Shown: one piece after another, positions 21,894-34,051 of the stretch
How positions within the stretch are numbered: position 1 is the stretch's first letter
Layout: each line of letters opens with the position of its first letter
Source: Bacteroidales bacterium
Lineage (GTDB): Bacteria; Bacteroidota; Bacteroidia; Bacteroidales; WCHB1-69
NCBI GenBank assembly: GCA_031266895.1
Contig: JAISAD010000162.1
Span: 1 to 42,748, forward strand
Length of the DNA stretch: 42,748 nt
Direction of reading: 5' to 3'
Translations under genes and position numbers: made by a program
The notes under the pieces: generated by a model
The model's input: only the letters and a program-made list of their open reading frames with translations
What the model was told of the DNA's origin: nothing
The model's database searches: none

Positions 21894-23228
21894 TCATAAT
21901 TTTTTTATCCCGCTAATAATCAGCCTCACCGTCTGCTCATACTCCTCCAGTCCGCATTGCTCGCAGTTGTCGCCGGGAGCATGATAGCCGCCATAGCGTC
22001 CGCCCAGAGTGTAGATAAACATAGCCGGCACCCCTTTCGCGGTAAAGGGGTAATGATCGCTGTTGGGCGCATTATCTCTGACTTTTAAATTTTTATGGTA
22101 CCGAAACTGCTCATTTGCCGCTGCCATGCCTTGATAGAAGCGGCCGCTGTCTATACTCATCACATTTTCCAGCATCAGCCCGTCGCTGCCGCCGCACAGC
22201 ATGTCGAGATTGAGGAGCAGCCTGATTTTCGACAGGTCTATCAGCGGATTTTCAGCAAAATGCTGCGACCCCAGCAGTCCGCTCTCTTCCCCACTGAAAA
22301 GAATATACAGCACATGGTACCTTATCGGATTATGGTGAAAATGGCGGGCTAAATCCAGCACTGCCGCGCAGCCGCTTGCATTGTCGTGGGCACCCGGATA
22401 GTAAACCCGCGTCCCCATCATGCCCAAATGGTCGTAGTGGGCGGTAAAGACGATAAAGCTGTCCACTGCGCCCCGCTCCATGGCACACACATTCTGCGTG
22501 GCAAGCCGGGTGTGGCGGTTGTCCAAATCAACAGTAATGCTTTTGTGGGCACGCTTGAGCAGCCCTGCCCGCAGGTAAATTACAGTAAAATTGCGCTCAT
22601 ATTCACTGCCTGCCAGCGACTGCGGAGGCAGTTGCGTCTCTTCAATCAGCAGGGCCGCCGTATGAAACGGATTCTCATAGCGCAATTTCAGCACGGCCTG
22701 TAGAAACTCTTGCCCTTCTGCCTCGCTTGCAGCCTTATAGGGTTCTGCAAGATTGAGATACACGGCAACAGGAGTGCGGCTTTTCGCCGCTTTTTGCTGC
22801 CACTTTTCTAATAAGGCTCTGTTTTTTGGCAGCAGCAGGGTGGGAGACAGGCGCACAATTTTCAGCCTTGCATGCAGCGCCGCCGAATAGTCGGCAATGC
22901 GGTAGTCAGCCTGCGGCGACAGGCTGTGCAGGCCCAGCTGCACCTCCGCATGGCCATCCATCGCAAAGGCAGGGCAGGAAAAGTACTGATAGTACTGCTC
23001 ATCCACAGGCAACACTCCCATATTGGAAAAGCAGCGGCTCAAATAGGCCGCTGCTTTAGCTGCGCCGTCCCTCTCGATATTTCTGCCGGCCATTTCGGGC
23101 GAGGCAAGGGTACAAATAACTTGTCTTGCAAAAGCACTGTCCTGTGCACAGGTTATGGAGCTGCAGCCACTCAATCCTAAGAGCAGCAGCAAAAAAAGGA
23201 GGCGTTTCATCTTACTCTTCGGGGGCAA
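21894..23228 (-). CDS. M28-family metallo-aminopeptidase lipoprotein
   Basis: 444 aa with lipobox LLLLGLSGCSS. It has the M28 metal-ligand motifs HYDHLG, GAHDNASGCAAVLDLAR and FSGEESGLLGSQHF. Confidence 0.85.
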   Translation of the reverse strand: MPPKSKMKRLLFLLLLLGLSGCSSITCAQDSAFARQVICTLASPEMAGRNIERDGAAKAAAYLSRCFSNMGVLPVDEQYYQYFSCPAFAMDGHAEVQLGLHSLSPQADYRIADYSAALHARLKIVRLSPTLLLPKNRALLEKWQQKAAKSRTPVAVYLNLAEPYKAASEAEGQEFLQAVLKLRYENPFHTAALLIEETQLPPQSLAGSEYERNFTVIYLRAGLLKRAHKSITVDLDNRHTRLATQNVCAMERGAVDSFIVFTAHYDHLGMMGTRVYYPGAHDNASGCAAVLDLARHFHHNPIRYHVLYILFSGEESGLLGSQHFAENPLIDLSKIRLLLNLDMLCGGSDGLMLENVMSIDSGRFYQGMAAANEQFRYHKNLKVRDNAPNSDHYPFTAKGVPAMFIYTLGGRYGGYHAPGDNCEQCGLEEYEQTVRLIISGIKKL

Positions 23229-24606
23229 ACATCGGATCCCACGGGGGAAGCACTGTCGGCTTTTGATTCAGCAGGTTCAGAATTTCGGCCGGTATATACT
23301 TTTTTTCTATCACCAGACGAAACATATACTCATTAAACCATTCGTTAGTCATAATAAGATTGCCCTTATAGCCGGAACTGCTGCCCCAGCTGTTTTCCAC
23401 CATCCACTTTTTGGGCTGTCCGGAATCATCCAAATCCACAGCTATCAAGGTCATAGCATGAGAAGAGCCGCTGGCAAATGTAGCAATGCGCTCTTTTTTA
23501 TTCATTTCGAAAGTGACGCCCATCAACGAAGCATAATCATAATTGTTGATATCCAGAAAGCCTTTATCGCGATCTAAAAACTTGCTCACATCACATGAAA
23601 AATACATGGAGCAGCTGTCTTTTATGGAAGCAATAGCCATCGAGGCAATTTTATCCATCGGCAGATTCAGGTATTTCCAGTTCTGTCCCTCATACACATG
23701 CCGATCGTACTCAATTTCATACACCTTATTATATTCGCGGGTAGGGTCGTTCATAATCATAATGTAATCGCTGAAATCCTGGCTGGCAAATTCCTGACAG
23801 AACGATTGCGGGGTGTAGGCTTTGGAATTTGAAGGCTTGCCCTGCGCATCTTTTGGGCTCCATGTAAACTCTTTTACCGGCTCGCCCAGGTTGAGCGCCA
23901 GCATCCGGTAGATAACCCCCAGCATCTCTATTTTCCTGTCGTTCAACTTGGCCGGCGTCATCCCTTTTTCCTTGCTCGCAGTGCGCAACTGCAATCCAAA
24001 CTCGCGCAGCTTCAGCCTCAGCAGCTGCGAAAGGCGGCTGGTATTGTTGCTGCTGTAAGTTTCGGGCATCACATCGCGGGGCACAACGCCATATTTGGCT
24101 ACAAGATTGGCCACGCCCGTAAATTGCCCTCCGTCGCCGATCGGATTCTTAAAAAGCCACTCTACTTTCCGGTCGCTCATTTCGCTGCTGCGCGTCTCTA
24201 TAATAGCCTGCAAAAAAAGATTGGCCTTTTCCAGCTGATCCCAGAAAAAGAGATAATTTTGCGAAAATTGAAAGTCGGAAGGCAAATGATGTCCTGCAAT
24301 GGCTTTGGTTCTCAATACATTGAGGCCGGTAAAAAGCCAGCAGCGTCCCGAAGATTTCTGGTTGGTAACGGACTTTGTATTTACCTGATTGGAAAAATAG
24401 CTGTCGAAAGCGGCAGCATTGTCGCTGTTGACAGCCAGTTTGTTGATGCCGAGAGAGTGCAGTGCATTTTTTATCACTTTCATTTCCGGCGATAGAGTGT
24501 AAGCTTTTTGAATTTGAGTCAGCATTGCAGCATCAATGCCGCCTTGCTGGGCAAAAACCGTACCGATGCAGGCGGTCATTAAGCAGGTGAACAGCTGTTT
24601 TTTCAT
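23212..24606 (-). CDS. pepC: Aminopeptidase C / bleomycin hydrolase family (C1B cysteine peptidase)
   Basis: Active-site motif QKSSGRCWLF, and the protein ends in the family-typical ...WDPMFAPEE. The preferred start is the ATG at 24606 (MKKQLFTCLMTACIGTVFAQ). The track start at 24654 lies upstream of the -7 box. The stop overlaps the M28 gene start by 17 nt. Confidence 0.88.
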   Translation of the reverse strand: MKKQLFTCLMTACIGTVFAQQGGIDAAMLTQIQKAYTLSPEMKVIKNALHSLGINKLAVNSDNAAAFDSYFSNQVNTKSVTNQKSSGRCWLFTGLNVLRTKAIAGHHLPSDFQFSQNYLFFWDQLEKANLFLQAIIETRSSEMSDRKVEWLFKNPIGDGGQFTGVANLVAKYGVVPRDVMPETYSSNNTSRLSQLLRLKLREFGLQLRTASKEKGMTPAKLNDRKIEMLGVIYRMLALNLGEPVKEFTWSPKDAQGKPSNSKAYTPQSFCQEFASQDFSDYIMIMNDPTREYNKVYEIEYDRHVYEGQNWKYLNLPMDKIASMAIASIKDSCSMYFSCDVSKFLDRDKGFLDINNYDYASLMGVTFEMNKKERIATFASGSSHAMTLIAVDLDDSGQPKKWMVENSWGSSSGYKGNLIMTNEWFNEYMFRLVIEKKYIPAEILNLLNQKPTVLPPWDPMFAPEE

Positions 24607-24632
24607 ATAAGTTATTTTTAAAAAATTTGGCG

Positions 24633-24640
24633 CAAAGATA
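24633..24640 (-). promoter_or_regulatory. -7 promoter box (TAtcTTTG, minus strand) for the pepC / M28 / rsmI transcription unit
   Basis: The plus strand reads caaagata, 27 nt upstream of the ATG at 24606. Confidence 0.5.
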
Positions 24641-24672
24641 CGGCAAAATATCAAACTGAGATTACTGCCTGC

Positions 24673-25293
24673 TTACGCTTCATCATTTTCCAGCTCCTTC
24701 AACTCCTGCAAGTTTTCCTGAATGGAAGCTATATGTTTGCTATATACCATTTTATACATATAAATACTGACTAGAATGCCGGTAAAAATGATACAAGTAA
24801 AAAATATCCACAGGAGCAGAGGCGCTTTCAGTATCGCGTATATACTTACACCCAGTGCTGTTAGAATAACGGTTATAATAATCGTTGCGATCTTTTCAAT
24901 TTTATTCATCAGACTGTATTTAGCAATGCATATTTGATTGTACATAAGGTTTTTTGAGGTGTCCAGACGCATCAGAAACCGCAATTTTACGATATACCAT
25001 ACAGTGATAAGGGATAATAGCACATACATAAAAACATAAAATATTCTGCCTGTAATCAGAGCAGGCAGGCCAAGATGGGGGAATTGATTTTCAATGGCGC
25101 CGTTAAGCCATACCATAGCGGGAATCAGCAATATGACGATAATCAGACTGAAAAAATCCCAATTGACCAGTTTTCGGATGGATGAGCTTGATTTTGAAGT
25201 GATAAGCTTCTTGATGTAGGTTTTGTTAAAGGCATGTTGCGGTAAATTTTCGCTTGCCGTTTTCCATGATTGTTTTAATTCTTCTAAGTCCAT
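24673..25293 (-). CDS. Four-TM membrane protein encoded immediately after the ECF sigma factor (candidate anti-sigma or partner protein)
   Basis: 206 aa, 25 nt downstream of the sigma gene. It has a soluble N-terminus (MDLEELKQSWKTASENL...), four hydrophobic segments and an acidic coiled tail. There is no HxxxCxxC zinc anti-sigma motif. Confidence 0.55.
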   Translation of the reverse strand: MDLEELKQSWKTASENLPQHAFNKTYIKKLITSKSSSSIRKLVNWDFFSLIIVILLIPAMVWLNGAIENQFPHLGLPALITGRIFYVFMYVLLSLITVWYIVKLRFLMRLDTSKNLMYNQICIAKYSLMNKIEKIATIIITVILTALGVSIYAILKAPLLLWIFFTCIIFTGILVSIYMYKMVYSKHIASIQENLQELKELENDEA

Positions 25294-25318
25294 GATTCTA
25301 TTAATTTTTATTGATTTA

Positions 25319-25813
25319 TTATTGATTTGACAATATTTTTAAGGTTGTTTTAATGCGTTTCAGCCTGGTGCCCACATTGGCAACCGATAACCCTGTAATC
25401 TCTGCAATTTCCTGATACGGCTTTTCTTCCAGCCATAGTAGAATCAGGGTACGGTCAAATGTTTTCAATTGCGCAATGCATCGGTACAGCTCTTTAATCT
25501 CCTGCTGCATGGATTCGCTTTCAAGTAACGGGATGGATACTTCTGTCAGCGATATGTTTTGCTGATGCTTTTTCTCGGTGCGTATCACTGAAATGCAGCA
25601 ATTGAGGGCAATGCGCCAAATCCAGGTGGTAATGCTGCTTTCGCTGCGGAATTTGGGATAGCCTTTCCACAGGGCAAGTACGGTTTCCTGATAGAGATCG
25701 TCTCTCGAAATGGTTTGCGTAGCGTAAAAGCTGCAGATTTTATACACTACCGCTTCGTTTTGCGATAGCATCTCTATGAAATCTTCTGTTAATAATCTGT
25801 CGTGTTGGTTCAT
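25319..25813 (-). CDS. ECF-type RNA polymerase sigma-70 family factor
   Basis: 164 aa. The region 2 pattern is DDLYQETVLALWKGYPKFRSESSITTWIWRIALNCCIS. Region 4 is LWLEEKPYQEIAEITGLSVANVGTRLKRIK. The size and two-domain layout are typical of ECF sigmas. Confidence 0.88.
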   Translation of the reverse strand: MNQHDRLLTEDFIEMLSQNEAVVYKICSFYATQTISRDDLYQETVLALWKGYPKFRSESSITTWIWRIALNCCISVIRTEKKHQQNISLTEVSIPLLESESMQQEIKELYRCIAQLKTFDRTLILLWLEEKPYQEIAEITGLSVANVGTRLKRIKTTLKILSNQ

Positions 25814-25904
25814 GCCAATGTTTTTTTTCGATTAGAGTTTTTTCAGTTAGACGCGGGAAAATAAGAAAAATGACATCAGAGAAAATGATAAATAATTTTT
25901 TTTG

Positions 25905-25912
25905 TATTTTTG
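25905..25912 (+). promoter_or_regulatory. -7 promoter box (TAttTTTG) reading toward the 42-bp repeat array and the 26259 operon
   Basis: tatttttg at 25905-25912 in the divergent intergenic region. Confidence 0.45.
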
Positions 25913-26010
25913 CAGCCGAAATTTTTTAATCAAAGTAAAAATAAAACCCCATGCTAAATACAGACTGCACAGCGCATCTCGAACAGGCAGAACGCCACTC
26001 GGAATATGAC

Positions 26011-26217
26011 TTGACGAACCTTTTAGGGCAAATTTGCCCGTTCATCATCTTACGAACAAAGCTTTTAGCCCTCGCCGACTCATTCATCACCTTACGAACA
26101 AAGCTTTTAACCCTTGCCGACTCATTCATTATCTTACGAACGAAGCTTTTAGCCCTCGCTGGCTCATTCATAGCCTTACGAAGGAGGCTTTTAGCCTTTT
26201 CCGACTCGTTTATCACC
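26011..26217 (+). repeat. 42-bp tandem repeat array: four good units at 26050, 26092, 26134 and 26176, plus degenerate flanking units
   Basis: The unit is TTACGAACAAAGCTTTTAGCCCTCGCCGACTCATTCATCACC. The degenerate first unit contains a 14-bp perfect palindrome, GGGCAAATTTGCCC, at 26026-26039. The array lies between the ECF sigma gene and the ATG at 26259. Three of six frames are open only because the unit is 14 codons long. Confidence 0.9.
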
Positions 26218-26258
26218 TTACAAACAAAATTTTTATATCTATAATTAAAAATAATATC

Positions 26259-26984
26259 ATGCAAGAAGTTATTACCCGCATTAATTTGCAGCATTTAAAA
26301 AACGAAACCCACGTTCAGTTTAACGAAAGCGCAAACGCGCTCTTTGTAAAGTACAACCCTCAGACTTTGGGCATTGCGCCTTTGCATGCGCTGTTTAAGA
26401 CGGCGTTTGACAGGGAGATTGCGGCGCTCGACTTTATGCGCAAGAGCGAAATCACGGCACAGATTTTCGAGCAGGACAGGGTGCGAGACGCTGTCTTTCG
26501 CGGCTTTTCGGACACGGTGAAGGGCGCAATCCGCCATTTTGATCCCGCCTGGAGCGAAGCGGCTGAGCGCCTCCACAACCTCTTCAGGCACTATGGAAAT
26601 ATTGCCCAAAAGACTTTCGATGATGAGACGGCGGCCATCAACGACCTGCTACGCGAGCTGCAGGAGAAAAGTTTTGCCACTGCGATTACCCTGCTGGGCT
26701 TGACCCCCTGGCAGGAAAAGCTCCGGGAAGAAAACGACCGCTTTGCGCAGCTGATGATGGACAGATACAGGGAAACCGCCCAGAAAACACCCTATCGCAT
26801 GACGGCTGCGCGCCGCGATACCGACAAATACTATCACGCCATAATAGGTCAGCTGGAAAATATCTCTCTTGCCGCTACTGCCGACATTAGCGAGCTGGTT
26901 AGGGAGCTGAACGCCGTTACCGACCGCTTTAAAAGCATACTGGCCCAGGAGCGCGGAGAGCGGAAAAGGAAATCTGAAAATTAA
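26259..26984 (+). CDS. Alpha-helical hypothetical protein (241 aa), first gene of the dockerin-protease / cohesin-scaffold operon
   Basis: The first in-frame ATG is at 26259 (MQEVITRINLQHLKNETHVQFNESANALF...). The track ORF starts at a TTG at 26034 inside the repeat array. There is no signal peptide, and the tail is charged (ERGERKRKSEN). It ends 7 nt before the S8 gene. Confidence 0.6.
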   Translation: MQEVITRINLQHLKNETHVQFNESANALFVKYNPQTLGIAPLHALFKTAFDREIAALDFMRKSEITAQIFEQDRVRDAVFRGFSDTVKGAIRHFDPAWSEAAERLHNLFRHYGNIAQKTFDDETAAINDLLRELQEKSFATAITLLGLTPWQEKLREENDRFAQLMMDRYRETAQKTPYRMTAARRDTDKYYHAIIGQLENISLAATADISELVRELNAVTDRFKSILAQERGERKRKSEN

Positions 26985-26991
26985 AAGCAAA

Positions 26992-29900
26992 ATGAAGAAT
27001 AGTTATTGTATTTTTTGGCTCTCCTTAATAGGATTGAGCATAAGCGGAGGGCTAAACGCCCAGGATCGCAACAACCAGCATGAGGTGGTGCAGTTAGACC
27101 CGCAAATAAGCCACGCCGGCAGCGTGGCCAACGAAGTGCTGGTAAAGTTTAAAGCCGGCACAGCGGCGCAAATGCAGCAGATTGCCCCCAAAAGAATGCA
27201 GGCCGGCCTCAGCGCTGTGGATGCGGTACTGTCGCACTACGATATTGAAGTGGCCGAGCAGTTGCTCCCCAACGACAACCCCGGCCGTATGCTCAAAAGC
27301 ACGAAAGCCTACAGCGGAAACGATGTGGTGGAAACCTCTCTTAACCAGCTCTATCGGTTACAAGTAGCCGCCACCAGCGCCAAAAGCAGTTTTGAGCTGA
27401 TTGAGGAGCTAAAGGCCTTGCCGGAAGTGGAATTTGCCGAGCCGAACTACATAGTGTCGGCATTAGGAAGGGATTGCCTCGGTAGGGGTGCCGTCGAAGC
27501 AAACTCCACCACAACTGTCGAAGCAAACGATCCCCTCTACCCCCAGCAATGGGGCATCCCTGCGGTGGCACTTGACGCGCTTTACACCAAGCCTGTGCTG
27601 CCGAATGCCCCAAGGAAAGTGATTGCCATTCTCGATACCGGCGTTGACCCCGAACATCCCGACCTTGCGGCCAATATCTGGACAAACCCCGGTGAGCAGG
27701 GCGGAGCAGTCAACTACGATAACGACGGCAACGGCTTTAAAAACGACCTGCACGGCTGGGATTTTGTAAACAAAACCGCCACCGTAAACGACTTTAACAG
27801 CCACGGCACCCACTGCGCCGGTATTGCCGCCGCGGTAGCCGACAACAGTATCGGCATTGCGGGAGCAAATCCCAATGCGCTGATTATGCCCCTTGCCGTG
27901 CTGCAAAGCAACGGACAGGGCGATGTGGCCACCATAATTCAGGGCATTAACTATGCCAAAAATAACGGCGCCGATATTATTTCGATGTCTTTCGGCACCT
28001 ACGCCCACTCTATTGCCCTCGAGCAGGCTTTGGCTCAGGCTTACCAGAATTGCGTACTGGTGGCTGCGGCAGGGAATGATGCTTTGGGAATATACCCTTT
28101 ATGCGGCCTGCCAACATATCGACCTATGTTTCCTGCGGCTTATACTTTTGTGCTGGGAGTACAGGCATCGCAGCAAAATGACGCCATGTCAGTTTTTTCC
28201 AATTTTGACTGCGATGGGGCAACCTTTTCGCAGACTTCCGAAGAACAGCAATACAATTATGAATTAATGGCGCCCGGTACAGGAATTATTTCTACTGTAC
28301 CCAATGGACAATACCGCAGTTATAACGGCACTTCTATGGCTTGCCCATTGGTAGCAGGCGGTATTTCGGCTTTGCTCGACAGGAAAAACTTTGTTTCACA
28401 GGAAGAGTTGTGGGCTAATTTGATACAATCGTCAAACAGCAATGGTATTGTAGATTTTAACGCCGCCTGTAGCTTTGTACTGCAGCCGCAACTCCATATT
28501 ATTGCCATAGAAACCAACGACACCCTTAATGGAGACGGCGATATGCGAGCAGATGCGGGCGAACTGCTGCAAATTTACCCCACTTTAAAAAATACGGGCG
28601 GAGTAACAGGCGGGGAAAACGATACCATTTATTACAAGCTCGAATTTGCCGAATTTGAAGATGCTAATACGGCCACTATTTTAAACGGCGATACTAAATT
28701 TGGTTATATACTTTCTGCCTATTCCAAAATGAAAGCCGCCAATCCCATTAACCTGCAAATTAGCCCGGATGTAGTGGACGGCAGAGTTATAAAATTTGTA
28801 CTTACTGCTTGGCGCGGCAATCATTTAGGCGAAGTAAGCCAGGAATTTCAGGTTTATGTAGAAAACGGCGTGGAATTAAGCGGGATGCTGATGCACAACG
28901 ATACGCTGACTGCCGACAAGCATTATATTGTTACCGATAATTTCGCTATTCCCGAAGGAGTTACATTGGTTATAAAACCAGGAACAGTGCTGAAATTTAA
29001 AGATAATGTTAGAATGTCAAGTGCAGGACAAATAAAGGCAGTTGGAACTCCCGACAGTTTAATTTATTTTACAAAAACAGATTTAGGAAATGGTTGGGGT
29101 AATATATGGTTTAGTAATTATAGTTATACAGATAGTCTCAAATATTGTGTGATTGAATATGTCAACAATCAAACAAACAATCAAATGACTTACAATATGT
29201 CAGATATTATTTTTAGAAATAATACTATGAATTTTAGTACTATGAATATTTTTAATAGCAATATTAGTAATAATAGATGTTGGGTGATTAATAGCACGAA
29301 TTTTGAACATTGTAACATAGTTAATAATGATGCCTATCGGGGTGAGTATGGAGTATCATATGATATTAAATATTTTAGAGAAAACAATATTTTTTCTAAT
29401 TCCCTTTATAGTATACATTTAGTCGATGCAACTCCTGCTATTTATTATCAATCGCGACCTTCATATCACGGTTCTTCCGTAGAAACTATCGCCCGAAAAG
29501 GCATATTTGATTTTTATACTCCAAATAGTGGCATTTTCGGCGTTTATGATTTATCCAATATGCTTATCCGCCCCTATGCCCAAGCCCACGGCATTGTCTG
29601 GAAAGTAGTAGTAAATGGCTACGATGCGCAGGACGAATTTGATATGCTGCCTCCGCTGGGCGTAGGCACGCACGAGTTTAAGGTCTATTTTAACCGTGCC
29701 ATGGATACGCTCGTTGCGCCCATGGTGGCTATGGGCGTTCGCCCGCCCTATACGCAAAATGCCATAGCTGAAAACGGCCACTGGATAGTAGAAGACGACA
29801 GCACCTATATCTATGTCGCCAATTTTACCGTAAAGGCAGCCAGCACCACAGACGGTTTAAACCGGATTTATGTAGCCAATGCCCAGGATAATGAGCATTT

Positions 29901-31077
29901 TGAAATACCTTACGAAAATCAGCGCTTTAACGCTATAGTGCAGGCAGCCGGCAGCATGAGCAACGGCTTTATGGCCACCCCTGCCATGGGCAAAATCAAC
30001 CTGGAATGGGAAAAGCCCGAAGGCTACTTTGACGACCTGCTCGGCTATAACATGTACCGCTATGTTTGGGTAACCGACAGCACCACCAGCGATACGCTGA
30101 TGATAAACACTTCGCTGCTTAGCGACACGCTCTACACCGACTTTGACGTAATGCCGGGCAAAACCTACGGCTATATGTACAAAGTAATGCGTACCGACCT
30201 TGCCATGAACGACTACTCCAAAACTGTCTCTGCCTCTCCGCTCACCGCCGCCAAGGGAGATGCCAATGGCAGCTTGAGCATTGATGTGGCCGACATTGTC
30301 TCTACCGTATCGCATATCACAGGCGGCAACCCTCAACCCTTTATCTTCGAGGCGGCAGATGTTAATTCCGATGGGGTAGTCAATGTACTTGATATTGTAG
30401 CTATTGTCAATCTGATTTTGAATCCGCAGCCAGCTCCGCAAGGCGTAGGCATTGCCTCCACCGCCACTTACAGCATCGAAAGCGACACCCTGTTTATAGA
30501 AAGTCCGGCAACCCTGGGCGGCGTGCAGTTTAAAATCCATGCCGACAAAAATGCGGCAGCCATTCGCCCACTGGCGGCATTAAGCGGCTTTGAAAATGTA
30601 AGCCAGTGGCTCGACGACACCACCTACCTGTTGCTTGCCTTCAGCATGACCGGCAACGAAATCCCCGCAGGCCGAAACGCCCTGCTGCAGCTTGGCGAGG
30701 GCTCGGAACTGGCGGAAATTATCGCCTGCAACCCGCAGGGCGACAATATTCCTATAGTAAACGCCCCCACCGGTATTCCCACGATTGAAACGGTAACGAT
30801 AGCACACAACTGCGCCCTGAAAGTTTATCCCAATCCGTTCCGCTCGGCGCTGCACGTGCAGGTAACCACCCTTTTCAACACCAGCGCAAAGCTTGATCTG
30901 GAATTTACCGACCTTGCGGGAAGACAGCTGCACAAAGTCCGTGCGTTAGCCCCTGCCAACGGCGTTTACGAATACATCTGGAATGCTGCCGGCTTGCCCA
31001 AAGGCCTCTATTTCTGCACGCTGAAGGTAAATAATGAGGCAGTGAAAACCGAAAAAGTAATTTTTGCAGGAGAATAA
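26992..31077 (+). CDS. Multidomain S8 subtilase. Order of parts: signal peptide, I9-like propeptide, S8 catalytic domain, beta-helix-like Asn-rich module, FN3-like module, dockerin-like module, short cohesin-like segment, T9SS C-terminal domain.
   Basis: 1361 aa with a canonical triad: VIAILDTGVDPEHPDL, HGTHCAGIAAAVA and NGTSMACPLVAGGISAL. The dockerin-like pair is GDANGSLSIDVADIV...ADVNSDGVVNVLDIVAIVNLIL. The C-terminus LKVYPNPFRSALHVQV...GLYFCTLKVNNEAVKTEKVIFAG is a T9SS tail. Confidence 0.88.
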   Translation: MKNSYCIFWLSLIGLSISGGLNAQDRNNQHEVVQLDPQISHAGSVANEVLVKFKAGTAAQMQQIAPKRMQAGLSAVDAVLSHYDIEVAEQLLPNDNPGRMLKSTKAYSGNDVVETSLNQLYRLQVAATSAKSSFELIEELKALPEVEFAEPNYIVSALGRDCLGRGAVEANSTTTVEANDPLYPQQWGIPAVALDALYTKPVLPNAPRKVIAILDTGVDPEHPDLAANIWTNPGEQGGAVNYDNDGNGFKNDLHGWDFVNKTATVNDFNSHGTHCAGIAAAVADNSIGIAGANPNALIMPLAVLQSNGQGDVATIIQGINYAKNNGADIISMSFGTYAHSIALEQALAQAYQNCVLVAAAGNDALGIYPLCGLPTYRPMFPAAYTFVLGVQASQQNDAMSVFSNFDCDGATFSQTSEEQQYNYELMAPGTGIISTVPNGQYRSYNGTSMACPLVAGGISALLDRKNFVSQEELWANLIQSSNSNGIVDFNAACSFVLQPQLHIIAIETNDTLNGDGDMRADAGELLQIYPTLKNTGGVTGGENDTIYYKLEFAEFEDANTATILNGDTKFGYILSAYSKMKAANPINLQISPDVVDGRVIKFVLTAWRGNHLGEVSQEFQVYVENGVELSGMLMHNDTLTADKHYIVTDNFAIPEGVTLVIKPGTVLKFKDNVRMSSAGQIKAVGTPDSLIYFTKTDLGNGWGNIWFSNYSYTDSLKYCVIEYVNNQTNNQMTYNMSDIIFRNNTMNFSTMNIFNSNISNNRCWVINSTNFEHCNIVNNDAYRGEYGVSYDIKYFRENNIFSNSLYSIHLVDATPAIYYQSRPSYHGSSVETIARKGIFDFYTPNSGIFGVYDLSNMLIRPYAQAHGIVWKVVVNGYDAQDEFDMLPPLGVGTHEFKVYFNRAMDTLVAPMVAMGVRPPYTQNAIAENGHWIVEDDSTYIYVANFTVKAASTTDGLNRIYVANAQDNEHFEIPYENQRFNAIVQAAGSMSNGFMATPAMGKINLEWEKPEGYFDDLLGYNMYRYVWVTDSTTSDTLMINTSLLSDTLYTDFDVMPGKTYGYMYKVMRTDLAMNDYSKTVSASPLTAAKGDANGSLSIDVADIVSTVSHITGGNPQPFIFEAADVNSDGVVNVLDIVAIVNLILNPQPAPQGVGIASTATYSIESDTLFIESPATLGGVQFKIHADKNAAAIRPLAALSGFENVSQWLDDTTYLLLAFSMTGNEIPAGRNALLQLGEGSELAEIIACNPQGDNIPIVNAPTGIPTIETVTIAHNCALKVYPNPFRSALHVQVTTLFNTSAKLDLEFTDLAGRQLHKVRALAPANGVYEYIWNAAGLPKGLYFCTLKVNNEAVKTEKVIFAGE
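30256..30420 (+). other. Dockerin-like module (two Ca-binding F-hand-like segments) inside the S8 protease
   Basis: GDANGSLSIDVADIVSTVSHITGG-NPQPFIFEA-ADVNSDGVVNVLDIVAIVNLIL. Compare the dockerin consensus GDvNgDG.vn..D...l.+.il......(link)...aDvN.DG.in..D...l.+.il. Confidence 0.65.
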
Positions 31078-31084
31078 AAACCGA

Positions 31085-34051
31085 ATGAAAAGATACATAA
31101 TAGCTTCATTTATACTGCTGCTGTCCGGTTTTGTGGTTGCTCAAAACACCATGCAAATCGGCTCGTATCAAACTCCGCCCGATACAGAACTTGAAATTGC
31201 GCTTGAAATCTCCAACACGGCGTACTTTACAGCGTTTCAGGCAGACATTCCAATTCCTGCGGGCTTTTCCTACGTGGTTGGTTCGGCTGTGCTTAATACA
31301 AGCCGCGCCGGCGGACACCAGTTTTCTGCCGCTATGGTGCAGGCAGGCCTTTTGCGCCTGATAGCCTATGCTGCAGACAACAGCGCATTTAACGGCAATT
31401 CGGGCGCGGTGGCGACTTTCCACTTGAAATCGGCAGCCTCTGCGGGCAATTTTGCCTTGCAGATTCAAAATGCCACAATTGGAAACAGCAGCGGAGAAAA
31501 TGTGCTCACAGGTGTGCAGGCAGGCAATGTTACAGTTGTGTCGCCTGAAATTGCACTGTCGGGCACATCGCTCAATTATGGCCGCACAGCCTTGCAAAGT
31601 TCGCCCACCCGCACTTTTGTAATTCAGAATACCGGCAATGCGTCGTTAACCGTCAACAGCTTCAATTTCAGCAGTGCGGAGTTTTCCACTAATGAGACTT
31701 TGCCGTTCAGCATTGCGGCAAACACAGGTAAAACCGTTCCCATAACTTTTGCGCCCCTGACTAAGGGAGCAAAAAATGCGCAGCTGATTATCGGGAGCAG
31801 CGATTACGACGAACCGACTGTAACGGTCGGATTTCAGGCCATTGCCTACGCTGTGAACGAATTGCACACAGGCAACGCGAGCGGCGCGTCGGAGAGCGTG
31901 CAGACTCTGGAGTTTTCTATTAATAACATGGAAGCTTTTACAGGCTTTCAATTTGACTTGAAACTGCCCGCTGCGCTGACTTATGCAGCCGGTTCGGCAA
32001 TGCTTTTTCGTGCTGACGGACATTCGGTATCGGTAAATCAGTTTAACGACACCTTGCGTGTGGTGGCTTTTTCGTTTGCTAACCATAATTTTACAGGCAG
32101 CAGCGGAAAAGTGCTGAGCTTAAATTTTGCACTTAACGGCATTGCCGGCAACTATCCGCTGGCGATTTCAAATGTAATTATGGTGAACAGTCAGAGTGAA
32201 AATATTTTGTCTGACAAATACAACGGCACGCTGCATATTACCTCGCCCGACATCGCCGCTGCCATAAGCTTGAATTTCGGTGAAGTTTCCATTCTGGAAA
32301 CAAAGGAGATGATGCACCGCATTCATAATTACGGACAGGAGCCGCTGATTCTAAATCAGCTGCAATTTTCAAATTCTTGCTTTTCGAGTCCGCAAACCTT
32401 GCCGCTAACCATTCCGGCAGGCGGCTATTTTGATTTGCCTGTGCGGTTTCAGCAGGCGGCAAAAGGCGTAGCTAGCGGCGTGCTCAAAATTTTCGGAAAC
32501 GACCCTGACGAAAACCCGTTTGAAATCACATTGTCGGGAAATGCTTACATGCCTAACCGGTTGAAAATAGTTTCCGATACTGTCAGCGCAAGCGAGGCCG
32601 CCATTGAAATAGAGATTGAAAATTACGAAGACTTTGTCGCCTTTCAGTTTGATTTAAATTTTCCTGTGGACGTTACACCCAATTTGGAAAATATAGCTTT
32701 AACCGGCCGCAAGCAAAATCACGGCATTTCGGCAAGCTCCATTTCTGAAGATACGGTTCGAATAGTGGTATTCAGCGTAACGCAGCAAAATTTTCTGGGA
32801 AATTCGGGCACAGTGGTCAGGATCCCGTTTACTGCCCGCTGCGGAAATTACAGCTTTTCACTCGGTAATGCCCTGGTTAGCAATGCGCAGTCTGAAAATA
32901 TTTTGCGAAGCACGGAAAGCGGCGCAGTAGAAATCTATCTGGATACGATAAGGATTAACGAAGCAATCTGTCAGGGTGAAGCGTATAGCTTTTTCGGACA
33001 AATGCTAACAACAGCAGGAGACTATGCCCACACTTTGCCATCCACCAGCGGTTGTGACAGCGTAGTAACCCTGCACCTAATCGTTAATCAGTCCGTTACT
33101 AACAGTTTCTCCGCCTCTTCCTGCCTGTCTTATGCATGGAACGGCCAAACCTATATGCAAAGCGGCGACTATCAGCAAACTTTCACAGCCGCCAGCGGCT
33201 GCGACAGCGTAGTCACCTTGCACTTAATTATTAGCCAGTCCGTTACTAACAGTTTCTCCGCCTCTTCCTGCCTGTCTTATGCATGGAACGGCCAAACCTA
33301 TACGCAGAGCGGCGACTATCAGCAAACTTTCACCGCTGTCAGCGGCTGCGACAGCGTAGTAACTCTGCACTTAATCGTTAATCAGCCCGTTGCTAACAGT
33401 TTCTCCGCCTCTTCCTGCCTGTCTTATGCATGGAACGGCCAAACCTATATGCAAAGTGGCGACTATCAGCAAACTTTCACTGCTGCCAGCGGCTGTGACA
33501 GCGTGGTAACGCTTAGCCTGACAATTGCTCCTGCTCCCGATATGCCCGAAGCCATAGCAGGAGAAACAGCTATCACCCAAAGCAATAGTTACAGTTACAG
33601 TATTTCACCGGTGGCTAATGCTTCCTGCTATACTTGGACTGTTAGCAATCCTGCATGGGAGCTTGTTTCCGACTGTGATATTTATGCCACGCTCCATATC
33701 ACCTCCTCAGGAAGCGGAATATTAAGCGTAGCAGCTATTAACGACTGCGACACTTCCGAAGCAAGCATGCTCGAAATCACCTCTTCTGTAGGCATTACAT
33801 TGCTGAACAGCAACACTTCCATTAAGATTTATCCCAATCCGGCACAAACGCACATCGACCTTGTTTTGCCTGAAGATGCACAGCAGGGGGAATTTGCATT
33901 ATACGATGCTCAGGGCAAACTCTTAATGAAGCGAAATATTAAAAACGAGAGCCGTATTGACATTCGGCATCTCGTTCCAGGCATGTATATGTATCAAATT
34001 GATACAAAAGGAAAAGTATTCCCGGGAAAATTACTGATAGATACCCGGTAA
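31085..34051 (+). CDS. Scaffold-like T9SS surface protein. Order of parts: signal peptide, cohesin-like 1, ASPM/HYDIN-type (choice-of-anchor-D-like) Ig module, cohesin-like 2, second Ig module, cohesin-like 3, four GCDS repeats, PKD-like module, T9SS C-terminal domain.
   Basis: The preferred ATG is at 31085 (MKRYIIASFILLLSGFVVAQ), 8 nt after the protease stop. Three modules of about 130 aa each carry F.(A/G)FQ.D(I/L)..P, then .(L/V)R(L/I/V)(I/V)A(Y/F)(A/S), then GNSG.V....(F/L), then Y.(L/F).(I/L), then ..N(S/A)(S/Q)(G/S)EN(V/I)L. The intervening modules have the pattern S(L)NFG.V......F.I.N.G...L. The C-terminus IKIYPNPAQTHIDLVL...GMYMYQIDTKGKVFPGKLLI is a T9SS tail. Confidence 0.8.
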   Translation: MKRYIIASFILLLSGFVVAQNTMQIGSYQTPPDTELEIALEISNTAYFTAFQADIPIPAGFSYVVGSAVLNTSRAGGHQFSAAMVQAGLLRLIAYAADNSAFNGNSGAVATFHLKSAASAGNFALQIQNATIGNSSGENVLTGVQAGNVTVVSPEIALSGTSLNYGRTALQSSPTRTFVIQNTGNASLTVNSFNFSSAEFSTNETLPFSIAANTGKTVPITFAPLTKGAKNAQLIIGSSDYDEPTVTVGFQAIAYAVNELHTGNASGASESVQTLEFSINNMEAFTGFQFDLKLPAALTYAAGSAMLFRADGHSVSVNQFNDTLRVVAFSFANHNFTGSSGKVLSLNFALNGIAGNYPLAISNVIMVNSQSENILSDKYNGTLHITSPDIAAAISLNFGEVSILETKEMMHRIHNYGQEPLILNQLQFSNSCFSSPQTLPLTIPAGGYFDLPVRFQQAAKGVASGVLKIFGNDPDENPFEITLSGNAYMPNRLKIVSDTVSASEAAIEIEIENYEDFVAFQFDLNFPVDVTPNLENIALTGRKQNHGISASSISEDTVRIVVFSVTQQNFLGNSGTVVRIPFTARCGNYSFSLGNALVSNAQSENILRSTESGAVEIYLDTIRINEAICQGEAYSFFGQMLTTAGDYAHTLPSTSGCDSVVTLHLIVNQSVTNSFSASSCLSYAWNGQTYMQSGDYQQTFTAASGCDSVVTLHLIISQSVTNSFSASSCLSYAWNGQTYTQSGDYQQTFTAVSGCDSVVTLHLIVNQPVANSFSASSCLSYAWNGQTYMQSGDYQQTFTAASGCDSVVTLSLTIAPAPDMPEAIAGETAITQSNSYSYSISPVANASCYTWTVSNPAWELVSDCDIYATLHITSSGSGILSVAAINDCDTSEASMLEITSSVGITLLNSNTSIKIYPNPAQTHIDLVLPEDAQQGEFALYDAQGKLLMKRNIKNESRIDIRHLVPGMYMYQIDTKGKVFPGKLLIDTR
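31145..31543 (+). other. Cohesin-like module 1
   Basis: NTMQIGSYQTPPDTELEIALEISNTAYFTAFQADIPIPAGFSYV...LLRLIAYAADNSAFNGNSGAVATFHLKSAASAGNFALQIQNATIGNSSGENVL. Confidence 0.55.
31847..32245 (+). other. Cohesin-like module 2
   Basis: ...VQTLEFSINNMEAFTGFQFDLKLPAALTYA...TLRVVAFSFANHNFTGSSGKVLSLNFALNGIAGNYPLAISNVIMVNSQSENIL. Confidence 0.55.
32558..32938 (+). other. Cohesin-like module 3
   Basis: ...AAIEIEIENYEDFVAFQFDLNFPVDVTP...TVRIVVFSVTQQNFLGNSGTVVRIPFTARCGNYSFSLGNALVSNAQSENIL. Confidence 0.55.
33047..33520 (+). repeat. 147-bp (49-aa) tandem repeat with three near-identical units plus a partial one, encoding GCDS modules
   Basis: AGCGG(C/T)TG(C/T)GACAGCGT recurs at 33047, 33194, 33341 and 33488. 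The encoded unit is SGCDSVVTLHLI(V/I)(N/S)Q(S/P)V(T/A)NSFSASSCLSYAWNGQTY(M/T)QSGDYQQTFTA(A/V). Confidence 0.9.

Follow-up and report, generated by a model that had tools for sequence, protein, structure and literature searches.

The array described here lies in a 42,748-nt stretch of DNA (the whole stretch that was analysed, hereafter the window) between two divergently oriented genes. One of them encodes an ECF-type sigma factor and is followed by the gene of a multi-TM protein, which matched no family of Pfam or NCBIfam and is possibly an anti-sigma factor. The other encodes a DUF6261 protein. Only 7 nt separate its stop codon from the start of its operon partner, an S8 subtilase with a dockerin-like domain and a T9SS C-terminal sorting domain. 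The genes and features of the locus are the following:

24673-25293, minus strand: multi-TM protein of 206 aa, downstream of the sigma factor gene
25319-25813, minus strand (divergent): ECF-type sigma factor of 164 aa (Sigma70_r2, r4_2; TIGR02937)
25905-25912, plus strand: putative -7 promoter box of the Bacteroidota type, TATTTTTG (TAnnTTTG), recognised in the sequence
26008-26049, plus strand: u0, degenerate first unit, which carries the perfect 14-bp palindrome GGGCAAATTTGCCC
26050-26091, plus strand: u1, good unit, with sequence TTACGAACAAAGCTTTTAGCCCTCGCCGACTCATTCATCACC
26092-26133, plus strand: u2, good unit
26134-26175, plus strand: u3, good unit
26176-26217, plus strand: u4, good unit
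26218-26258, plus strand: u5, degenerate last unit, which grades into the AT-rich region before the start codon
26259-26984, plus strand: DUF6261 gene, 241 aa (Pfam PF19775, E = 1.7e-37)
26992-31077, plus strand: S8 subtilase, 1361 aa (Pfam Peptidase_S8, 2.7e-47; Por_Secre_tail; Dockerin_1)

The divergent region between the sigma factor gene and the DUF6261 gene spans 25814-26258, i.e., the 445 bp given in the first-pass annotation of this DNA. TRF identified a single array in it, at 26041-26235 (period 42, 4.6 copies, 80% matches, 0% indels, score 243), with 24 nt from the array end to the ATG at 26259. A repeat search gave unit spacings of exactly 42, 42, and 42 bp. When read in register, the array extends over 26008-26258 and consists of four good units between two degenerate ones, in agreement with the four well-conserved and two degenerate 42-bp copies that had been described before. 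The good units, u1 to u4, differ from each other at 4-11 of their 42 positions. The consensus unit was not found elsewhere in the window (100 shuffles gave 0 chance matches) nor elsewhere in the 2.0-Mb genome (89.6% complete), in which we also found no other copies of the leader or of the tail. The perfect 14-bp palindrome of the first unit, GGGCAAATTTGCCC, is present at 26027-26040 and scores p = 0.02 as an edge dyad, but edge palindromes are not general across the family of arrays described below. The palindrome AAAGCTTT, which had been attributed to every unit, occurs only in u1 and u2; in its place, u3 carries a 6-bp AAGCTT and u5 AAAATTTT, while u4 is without one. For the unit of this locus, the best dyad is AAAG/CTTT, which is no better than expected by chance (p = 0.64).

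The genome has four clean arrays of 41-42 bp (C27, C35, C124, and C168), and they coincide exactly with its four DUF6261 loci. In related termite-gut Bacteroidales, around 85-90% of the DUF6261 genes have a 41-43-bp array of their own, including 18 of the 20 named termite-gut loci and about 26 of the 30 paralog loci in relatives. In distant genomes of the phylum, an array was found at three of eight DUF6261 loci. The arrays lie 20-250 nt ahead of the start codon, with ends 24-250 nt before the ATG at most loci, and about a quarter of them have a period of 41 or 43. Their unit sequence differs at every locus; those of C35, C124, and C168 are unlike the unit of the window. There is no universal k-mer across the arrays, and the best k-mers barely reach the maximum of the shuffles. 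Of 28 arrays, 9 have a dyad at p ≤ 0.05, which is an enrichment, and several of these dyads have spacers of 0-2 nt. Given these numbers and the dyad of the window's own unit, a palindrome in each unit is a frequent rather than a defining trait. Across the 28 arrays, base composition is not consistently skewed towards one strand with respect to the gene.

We used these observations to define a class that is not in print: units of 41-43 bp, in at least three copies, without spacers and with few or no indels, placed 5' of a PF19775 gene, no more than a few hundred nucleotides from its start, and with a unit private to the locus. The array of the window has the length, the position, and the private sequence of this DUF6261-associated class, and we assign it to the class with high confidence. 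These data point to an undescribed control element linked to a gene. The genome contains another class of minisatellites, with 44 arrays of 21-23 bp. The periods of 41-43 bp correspond to four turns of B-DNA, and those of 21-23 bp to two. We tried a 222-aa ORF located behind a 21-bp array in contig C152 as a relative of DUF6261, and rejected it (hhalign probability 0.2).

DUF6261 genes are chromosomal, are present in 4-31 copies per genome, and are often followed by genes encoding secreted proteins or other cargo. A search for a cultured carrier returned 24 matches, all of them termite-gut MAGs. In Bacteroides thetaiotaomicron, which served as a control, DUF6261 is absent. The protein of the window is predicted to fold as an all-alpha bundle of 10 helices (AlphaFold2, pLDDT 93.6). 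It has no family in NCBIfam and no neighbour in the PDB, either by sequence or by fold (Foldseek, best E = 0.06), and the Foldseek search of the model gave no HTH-like, ParB-like, RNase-like, or other known nucleic-acid-binding fold. DUF6261 proteins are mostly acidic (median pI of 5.9 and net charge of -5).

We compared the locus with an ortholog that is 89% identical (L065). The palindrome GGGCAAATTTGCCC is 100% conserved there; homology starts at this point, and the upstream sequence cannot be aligned. The locus has four full units and the ortholog three, while a second orthologous pair has 5.0 and 4.0 copies. The variation in copy number that the first-pass annotation had anticipated among relatives is thus observed. 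Between orthologous units, 26 of 126 positions have changed, with zero indels; of the four-fold sites, 11 of 90 have. The divergence of the unit sequence is therefore no slower than that of synonymous sites, and the period is kept. Such drift, at the neutral rate or faster, is hard to reconcile with a sequence-specific recognition of most positions of the unit. In the last, degenerate unit, only 3 of 41 positions differ, and the ATG at 26259 is conserved as a start together with the preceding 23 nt.

This conservation bears on whether the array is translated, either as an N-terminal extension of DUF6261 with repeats of 14 residues or in either of two further open frames. A period of 42 is that of 14 codons, and in this locus as in the ortholog, three of the six frames run through the array without a stop. 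Here, one of them is open from 26034 on and leads in frame into the ATG. Relative to the ortholog, however, the three codon positions have received 8, 10, and 8 substitutions, an even spread, and the peptide read in frame is not conserved. Most paralogs lack the extended open frame, the quarter of arrays with periods of 41 or 43 do not fit a repeat of codons, and the conserved start lies downstream of the array. We rejected translation on the basis of the codon-position test and of these periods; it now seems extremely improbable.

The first-pass annotation had read each unit as an ECF-sigma promoter with the motif GAAC-N18-CGAC, so that the divergent sigma factor and the 4-TM protein beside it would control the protease operon through reiterated sites. 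The sigma factor gene is indeed adjacent and divergent, and u1 and u2 hold the motif. Yet it is altered in u3 (...TGGC) and u4 (GAAG...) and absent from u0 and u5, which leaves two complete copies in six units. ECF-sigma promoters have a -35 AAC and a -10 CGT separated by 16-17 nt, and the 18-nt spacer of the motif is too long by 1-2 nt. The canonical arrangement, AAC-N15-18-CGT, is absent from both strands of the divergent region. The annotation had also suggested searching the genome for GAAC-N18-CGAC: we found 14 occurrences where about 41 are expected from base composition, i.e., no enrichment. In the ortholog, the -10-like CGAC is replaced by CGGT, TGGC, or CAGC. The linkage between the genes is not maintained either. 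One of the seven sigma70_r2 genes of the genome adjoins a DUF6261 locus, and no ECF sigma factor is found near the other three DUF6261 loci. No homolog of the sigma factor, the membrane protein, or the S8 protease lies within 2.5 kb at any of 24 related loci. Nearly all of these loci nonetheless carry an array whose period is the same and whose sequence is unrelated, as do the other DUF6261 genes of the genome itself. The comparison thus largely refutes this reading, which we now consider very unlikely, and the ECF sigma factor is an unrelated neighbour of the array. The regulatory connection of the sigma factor with the protease operon was thus plausible but wrong, and we discard it.

The rapid turnover of the units raises the alternative of a function-less minisatellite, in which a lineage-specific bias of slippage or recombination would, as in the BrickBuilt and MITEPgRS repeats of Porphyromonas, produce units of around 21-23 and 41-43 bp that persist in the permissive leaders of DUF6261 genes. 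This is consistent with units that evolve at or above the synonymous rate and are gained and lost, with the presence in the genome of the numerous 21-23-bp arrays besides the 41-43-bp class, and with the copy-variable repeats of 41 and 23 nt published for the MITEs of Porphyromonas gingivalis (PMC2575886, PMC4596501). But a neutral process fails to explain why arrays are found at all four DUF6261 genes here and at most of those of relatives, why they stay on the 5' side and at a similar distance in spite of a complete turnover of sequence, and why there are no indels within units. Furthermore, the unit and its flanks are not dispersed and have no TIRs. We therefore regard an array devoid of function as unlikely.

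The housekeeping-type box that had been noted at 25905 is there, upstream of the array, and TATTTTTG is the sole TAnnTTTG box on the sense strand from the sigma factor gene to the start codon of DUF6261. It lies at -354 relative to the ATG, with no box between the array and the ATG. If it is used, the transcript has a leader of about 340 nt with the array inside. The segment at 25891-25945 matches many promoter-like places in this genome and in related ones. All four DUF6261 loci of the genome have a -7 box upstream of the array and none in the gap between the array and the ATG. Among 42 loci of the whole family, 15 have a sense box upstream of the array and 4 have one in the gap, a difference that is not significant per kb. 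A scan for promoters and terminators, made with consensuses of the E. coli type, gave only chance-level results, and nothing terminator-like was found at 26218-26258, between the array and the DUF6261 gene.

A long leader allows for an element acting at the RNA level, in which each 42-nt unit, by analogy with the tandem repeats of type III antitoxins or with repeat RNAs that titrate proteins, would bind a protein, possibly DUF6261, or be processed by it, and regulate the translation or the stability of the operon mRNA. The arrays are always 5' of the gene, near its start codon and co-oriented with it, and those of this genome lie downstream of -7 boxes. Units of fixed length and locus-specific sequence are also the hallmark of toxIN-type loci. 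Metatranscriptome contigs span the array and the leader of a distant DUF6261 locus. The arrays are thus probably transcribed, which leaves room for a role of the RNA. These transcript data come from direction-less Logan contigs (L061 and L063) that possibly contain DNA; no RNA runs matched the L054 locus, and the window itself was matched only in its source run, of termite-gut DNA. Against this hypothesis, the fold of the RNA is not significantly better than that of shuffles (sense z = -0.73, antisense z = -1.83), a search of Rfam at permissive E-values returned only noise, and the array is not separated from the gene by a terminator. The lack of a consistent strand skew across the arrays does not favour RNA either, and the relation between periods of two and four helical turns has no rationale at this level. 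DUF6261, a predicted helical bundle, has no RNase-like neighbour, and an abundance of up to 31 copies per genome, with cargo genes behind many of them, does not resemble that of toxin-antitoxin loci. On balance, we see an RNA-level element as a somewhat unlikely explanation. The first-pass annotation had proposed either a repeated operator or a structured 5' leader: the operator and the long leader behind the 25905 box survive in part, and the structure, given the sense fold, does not.

The reading that we tentatively prefer is that the array is, quite possibly, a platform of DNA acting in cis and repeating every four helical turns, within the leader of the DUF6261-subtilase operon. A protein would bind it cooperatively, with one site every 42 bp on a single face of the helix. 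Occupancy of the platform would throttle or insulate the transcription of the operon, and the number of copies would set the strength of the effect. Throttling or insulation would be the simplest effect because the array sits between the sole -7 box (25905) and the ATG (26259). We count the four-turn period, the lack of strand skew, the unstructured sense RNA, and the enriched dyads as evidence for the DNA level; dyads with spacers of 0-2 nt suit DNA, not RNA hairpins. The period, not the sequence, is what is kept, both across the family and between orthologs. A candidate binder would be DUF6261, the only consistently linked gene, even if these proteins are mostly acidic and their predicted structure has no known DNA-binding fold. 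Other observations fit this platform less well: the unit of the window has no significant dyad, units drift at or above the neutral rate, the position of the box in the family is not significant per kb, and the arrays are probably transcribed.

One may go further and regard DUF6261 and its array as a self-contained module of two parts, in which the protein, or a factor that it recruits, assembles on a lattice of 42-bp register. The four-turn register would be the sole conserved property of this lattice. Each paralog would have a private switch or insulator, tunable by copy number, for the genes behind it (here the T9SS subtilase), and the divergence of the arrays among paralogs would be driven by the avoidance of cross-talk. 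Such avoidance would explain why the arrays of a genome are all different and why their units drift no more slowly than silent sites. This extension is more doubtful than the platform itself.

If the pairing is functional, it represents a widespread and unstudied family of Bacteroidales cis-elements and proteins, with up to 31 copies per genome, whose modules often head operons for secreted or surface proteins. It would follow an unusual design rule, in which the unit keeps its length but is free to change in sequence. The 41-nt minisatellites of Bacteroidales, so far known only as cargo of Porphyromonas MITEs, would also gain a role. In practice, these arrays cause spurious ORFs in gene calling and breaks in assemblies.

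Several known systems resemble the array in part. It shares with ECF-sigma promoters the GAAC...CGAC pair of two units and the ECF sigma gene next door; it differs from them by the 18-nt spacer, by a motif that is incomplete and not conserved, and by an adjacency to a sigma factor that is not a feature of the family.

The closest published repeats by length are those of P. gingivalis. The 'Repeat C' of MITEPgRS (MITE464) consists of 41-nt tandem repeats (Naito et al. 2008, PMC2575886), and BrickBuilt is a 23-nt minisatellite (Klein et al. 2015, PMC4596501). Both are located inside MITEs with IS5-type TIRs and repeated flanks, with one sequence dispersed many times, and no link to DUF6261 is described for them (PMC2575886, PMC4596501). 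Like the array, they are intergenic, head-to-tail, spacerless repeats of Bacteroidales whose copy number varies from copy to copy and among strains, and their units of 41 and 23 nt parallel the 41-43 and 21-23 bp found here. In contrast, the unit of the window and the sequences flanking the array are single-copy, lack TIRs, and go with a single gene family. With up to three mismatches allowed, nothing at the locus matched the published TIRs, and the only inverted repeat flanking the array is AT-rich and 73% complementary. We rejected a MITE because TIRs and dispersed copies are missing; the array has in common with one only the copy-variable repeats of about 41 nt.

Type III toxin-antitoxin systems (toxIN, cptIN, tenpIN) also have repeats of fixed length and locus-specific sequence directly upstream of a protein gene and co-oriented with it. 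The locus differs from them in having neither a terminator nor a significant RNA structure, and in encoding what is predicted to be an acidic helical bundle, not an endoribonuclease of the ToxN/AbiQ type. The number of DUF6261 copies per genome, and the secreted-protein genes that often follow them, are further differences.

The sopC centromere of plasmid F has 12 direct repeats of 43 bp, which are bound by SopB. Each sopC unit includes an inverted repeat recognised by this ParB-type HTH protein and serves plasmid partition. At our locus, no dyad of the unit is significant, no HTH or ParB-like fold is predicted for the linked protein, and the neighbours of the array are, according to Pfam, a sigma factor, DUF6261, and peptidases instead of ParB and ParA. 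DUF6261 is also present in 4-31 chromosomal copies per genome, and each array has its own sequence. What the two systems share is the arrangement: direct repeats (42 bp here) that are spacerless, span about four helical turns, and lie beside the genes that they serve, which suggests a platform for cooperative binding.

The divergent intergenic region of 445 bp (25814-26258) contains a single strong tandem array, placed by Tandem Repeats Finder (TRF) at 26041-26235 (period 42, 4.6 copies, 80% matches, no indels, score 243). A repeat search gave a spacing of exactly 42 bp between units. The length of the region had been stated correctly in the first-pass annotation, and its count of four good and two degenerate units also holds once they are set in register:

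26008-26049, u0: degenerate, 5' of u1-u4, with GGGCAAATTTGCCC inside at 26027-26040
26050-26091, u1: well-kept 42-bp unit
26092-26133, u2: well-kept 42-bp unit
26134-26175, u3: well-kept 42-bp unit
26176-26217, u4: well-kept 42-bp unit
26218-26258, u5: degenerate, 3' of u1-u4, grading into the AT-rich pre-start region

The well-kept units differ pairwise at 4-11 of their 42 positions. A second copy of the unit was found neither in the window nor in the source genome, a 2.0-Mb termite-gut MAG (89.6% completeness). The array lies among the following genes:

21894-23228, minus strand: M28 peptidase
23212-24654, minus strand: C1-like aminopeptidase
24673-25293, minus strand: 206-aa multi-TM protein without family
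25319-25813, minus strand: ECF-type sigma factor
26259-26984, plus strand: DUF6261 (PF19775, E = 1.7e-37)
26992-31077, plus strand: 1361-aa S8 subtilase with T9SS sorting domain, beginning 7 nt past the DUF6261 stop
31064-34051, plus strand: 995-aa ORF overlapping the 3' end of the subtilase gene

The stretch 21894-31077 is rich in peptidases (M28, C1-like, S8/T9SS). Inside the 995-aa ORF, a 147-bp tandem repeat (33045-33510, 3.2 copies, 90% identity) probably encodes a protein repeat of 49 residues, and the ORF would be one more large secreted product of this operon.

One initial reading took the units as ECF-sigma promoters controlling the protease operon. We reject such a promoter stack on motif counts, sigma linkage, and ortholog comparison, and regard it as highly improbable. 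Both GAAC-N18-CGAC and AAAGCTTT had been attributed to every unit; each is complete in u1 and u2 only, and these are the sole carriers of GAAC-N18-CGAC in the window. Across the genome this motif occurs 14 times on both strands, against ~41 expected from composition, and the canonical AAC-N15-18-CGT is absent from both strands of 25814-26258. The proposed link to the sigma factor fares no better: among the seven sigma70_r2 genes of the genome, only the window's own is near a DUF6261 gene, and tblastn revealed no homolog of the sigma factor, the membrane protein, or the S8 protease within 2.5 kb at 24 named related loci. The -10-like CGAC has become CGGT, TGGC, or CAGC in the closest ortholog.

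The array is instead linked to the DUF6261 gene. This family is patchy across the phylum (6/401 sampled genomes). The source genome has four copies, and two other members of its taxonomic family have 31 and 17. By TRF, ~26 of 30 paralog loci have an array upstream of the gene, with a period of 41-43, 3-10 copies, and unit sequences that are unrelated even inside one genome. Clean period-41-42 arrays in the source genome correspond exactly to its four DUF6261 loci (C27, the one in the window, C35, C124, and C168); two more rows of period 42/43 are in reality 21-bp repeats. Comparable arrays are present at 18 of the 20 named termite-gut loci with sufficient upstream sequence and at 3 of 8 loci of distant genomes in the phylum, usually ending 24-250 nt from the start codon. 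In a 31%-identical paralog (L044, G002:C35), the consensus unit has CTTACGAACAAA and a nearby GCCGAC, as at 26048-26080 of the window; the spacing of these pieces differs and individual units are less alike than the consensus, so the likeness probably reflects chance, or else a weak common core (CGAACA recurs in 6 of 42 arrays). A distant locus of another class (L061:905-1310) has, on the way from its 41-bp array to the DUF6261 start, first a perfect hairpin whose arms (GTAGAGACACGCCG/CGGCGTGTCTCTAC) are 14 bp long and then a ~70-nt repeat in two copies. Many copies in the 31-copy genome (G002) end at contig ends near residue 107 (e.g., C48:7-402, C43:5-397, C34:7-396, C42:85801-86193), suggesting that the 5' gene halves or the arrays broke the short-read assembly.

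The closest homolog (L065, from another termite-gut sample, 89% protein identity) has the same unit family. Homology with the window begins at the perfectly conserved 14-bp palindrome, and the degenerate last unit and a near-identical 41 nt ahead of the ATG are kept. Copy number varies between relatives, as had been anticipated: four full units follow the palindrome in the window and three in L065, and a second orthologous pair has 5.0 (L073) and 4.0 (L083) copies. The three orthologous units of the window and L065 differ at 26 of 126 positions (24 transitions, no indels), compared with 11 of 90 four-fold sites in the adjacent gene (p = 0.14 by Fisher's test, for this one pair). The unit sequence is thus without detectable purifying selection, while the period is kept. 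Homologs at 60-66% identity have wholly different units and different neighbours. A minisatellite without function that persists in the DUF6261 leader would suit such free sequence and leave the kept period and the linkage to the gene unaccounted for; we hold it to be unlikely.

Translation of the array is ruled out as far as these comparisons go, and we give it next to no credence: ortholog substitutions are spread 8/10/8 by codon position, the in-frame peptide is not conserved, and a quarter of arrays have a period of 41 or 43. In public annotations, DUF6261 arrays have been called as hypothetical ORFs of 85-149 aa (L065:90-347, L066:2700-3149, L067:4600-5004) because stop-free units hold frames open. 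The L065 DUF6261 call is nine codons short (true ATG at 312, called at 339).

The only sense-strand Bacteroidota -7 box (TAnnTTTG) of the region, at 25905-25912, lies in sequence resembling many promoter regions of this and related genomes. All four DUF6261 loci of the source genome have such a box 100-300 nt 5' of the array and none between array and ATG. Over 42 loci, it occurs 5' of the array in 15 and in the array-ATG gap in 4, which is not significant per kb, the strict consensus being sparse. There is no terminator between array and gene. No RNA runs were recovered for the window. Metatranscriptome contigs span the array and leader of L061, and contigs from an RNA-seq-labelled run span the coding part only of another distant locus (L063); both sets are without strand direction and may include DNA. 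We infer only tentatively that the array is transcribed. A repeat acting as RNA, either toxIN-like or protein-titrating, would agree with this, and we consider it a minority possibility. The leader folds at shuffle level (sense z = -0.73, antisense z = -1.83), which does not support the structured leader first suggested as an option, and an Rfam search at permissive E-values returned only noise.

The protein itself is confidently modelled as all-alpha, with ten helices (AlphaFold2, 63-sequence alignment, pLDDT 93.6). Foldseek against the PDB gave a best E of 0.06 (TM 0.28), a profile search of PDB sequences gave no match, NCBIfam has no family for it, and in the literature searched it is named in two papers only, each time in a gene list for Streptococcus. 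DUF6261 proteins are mostly acidic (median pI 5.9, median net charge -5), which does not favour a role in coating DNA or RNA. DUF6261 typically comes first in its unit. Within the termite-gut clade the next gene, 8-120 nt on, starts with a signal peptide or as a lipoprotein; in other genomes DUF6261 is often alone.

No universal motif emerged from k-mers of 42 arrays, the top ones—GGAAA in 11, CGAACA (present in the window unit) in 6—barely reaching the family-wise shuffle maximum. Dyad symmetry is enriched without being universal (9/28 arrays at p ≤ 0.05, ~1.4 expected); the window unit has no significant dyad (p = 0.64). Edge palindromes are in slight excess only, and neither GC nor AT skew leans consistently one way with respect to gene orientation. 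What the comparisons show is a non-coding array tied to a gene, with a constrained period, a free sequence, and a varying copy number. The likeliest mechanism, though we favour it only tentatively, is a DNA-level phased platform within the leader, which would act on the DUF6261-subtilase operon by modulating its transcription. It is suggested by the match of 42 bp to four helical turns, beside a two-turn class in the same genome, by the lack of strand asymmetry and RNA structure, and by the DNA type of the dyads, where present.

The non-coding minisatellites of the source genome cluster at ~2 and ~4 helical turns, with ~44 arrays of 21-23 bp (e.g., C42:1-326, C108:4959-5221, C164:6886-7077, C152:2193-2413, C38:11892-12044) next to the 41-43-bp class. 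The former have 2.8-15 copies, many with a palindrome in the unit. Dispersed copies exist for several unit families, with CTGCGCAGCCAATTTTTTTTC at five sites, AAAACGAGTATTCGTTTT and TCTCCGAGCATGAAGTTTTAT at four each, and AAAAGGGGCGCCCCTTTT at three. One 21-bp array (C152:1490-2413, 10.5 copies, TRF period 42) lies directly 5' of a 222-aa ORF that has no Pfam family and is unrelated to DUF6261 (hhalign probability 0.2). The pairing of array and DUF6261 was not found in print; 41-nt Bacteroidales minisatellites are already published as a repeat type. The nearest published objects, both from P. gingivalis, are 'Repeat C' of MITEPgRS/MITE464, a 41-nt tandem repeat of variable number (up to 14 copies), and BrickBuilt, a 23-nt minisatellite (PMC2575886, PMC4596501). 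They share unit lengths and lineage with the arrays of the source genome, and its 21-23-bp class resembles the BrickBuilt minisatellite/MITE. Unlike the window array, they are dispersed MITEs with TIRs; the window unit and its flanks are single-copy and lack IS5-type TIRs, which rules out a MITE here.
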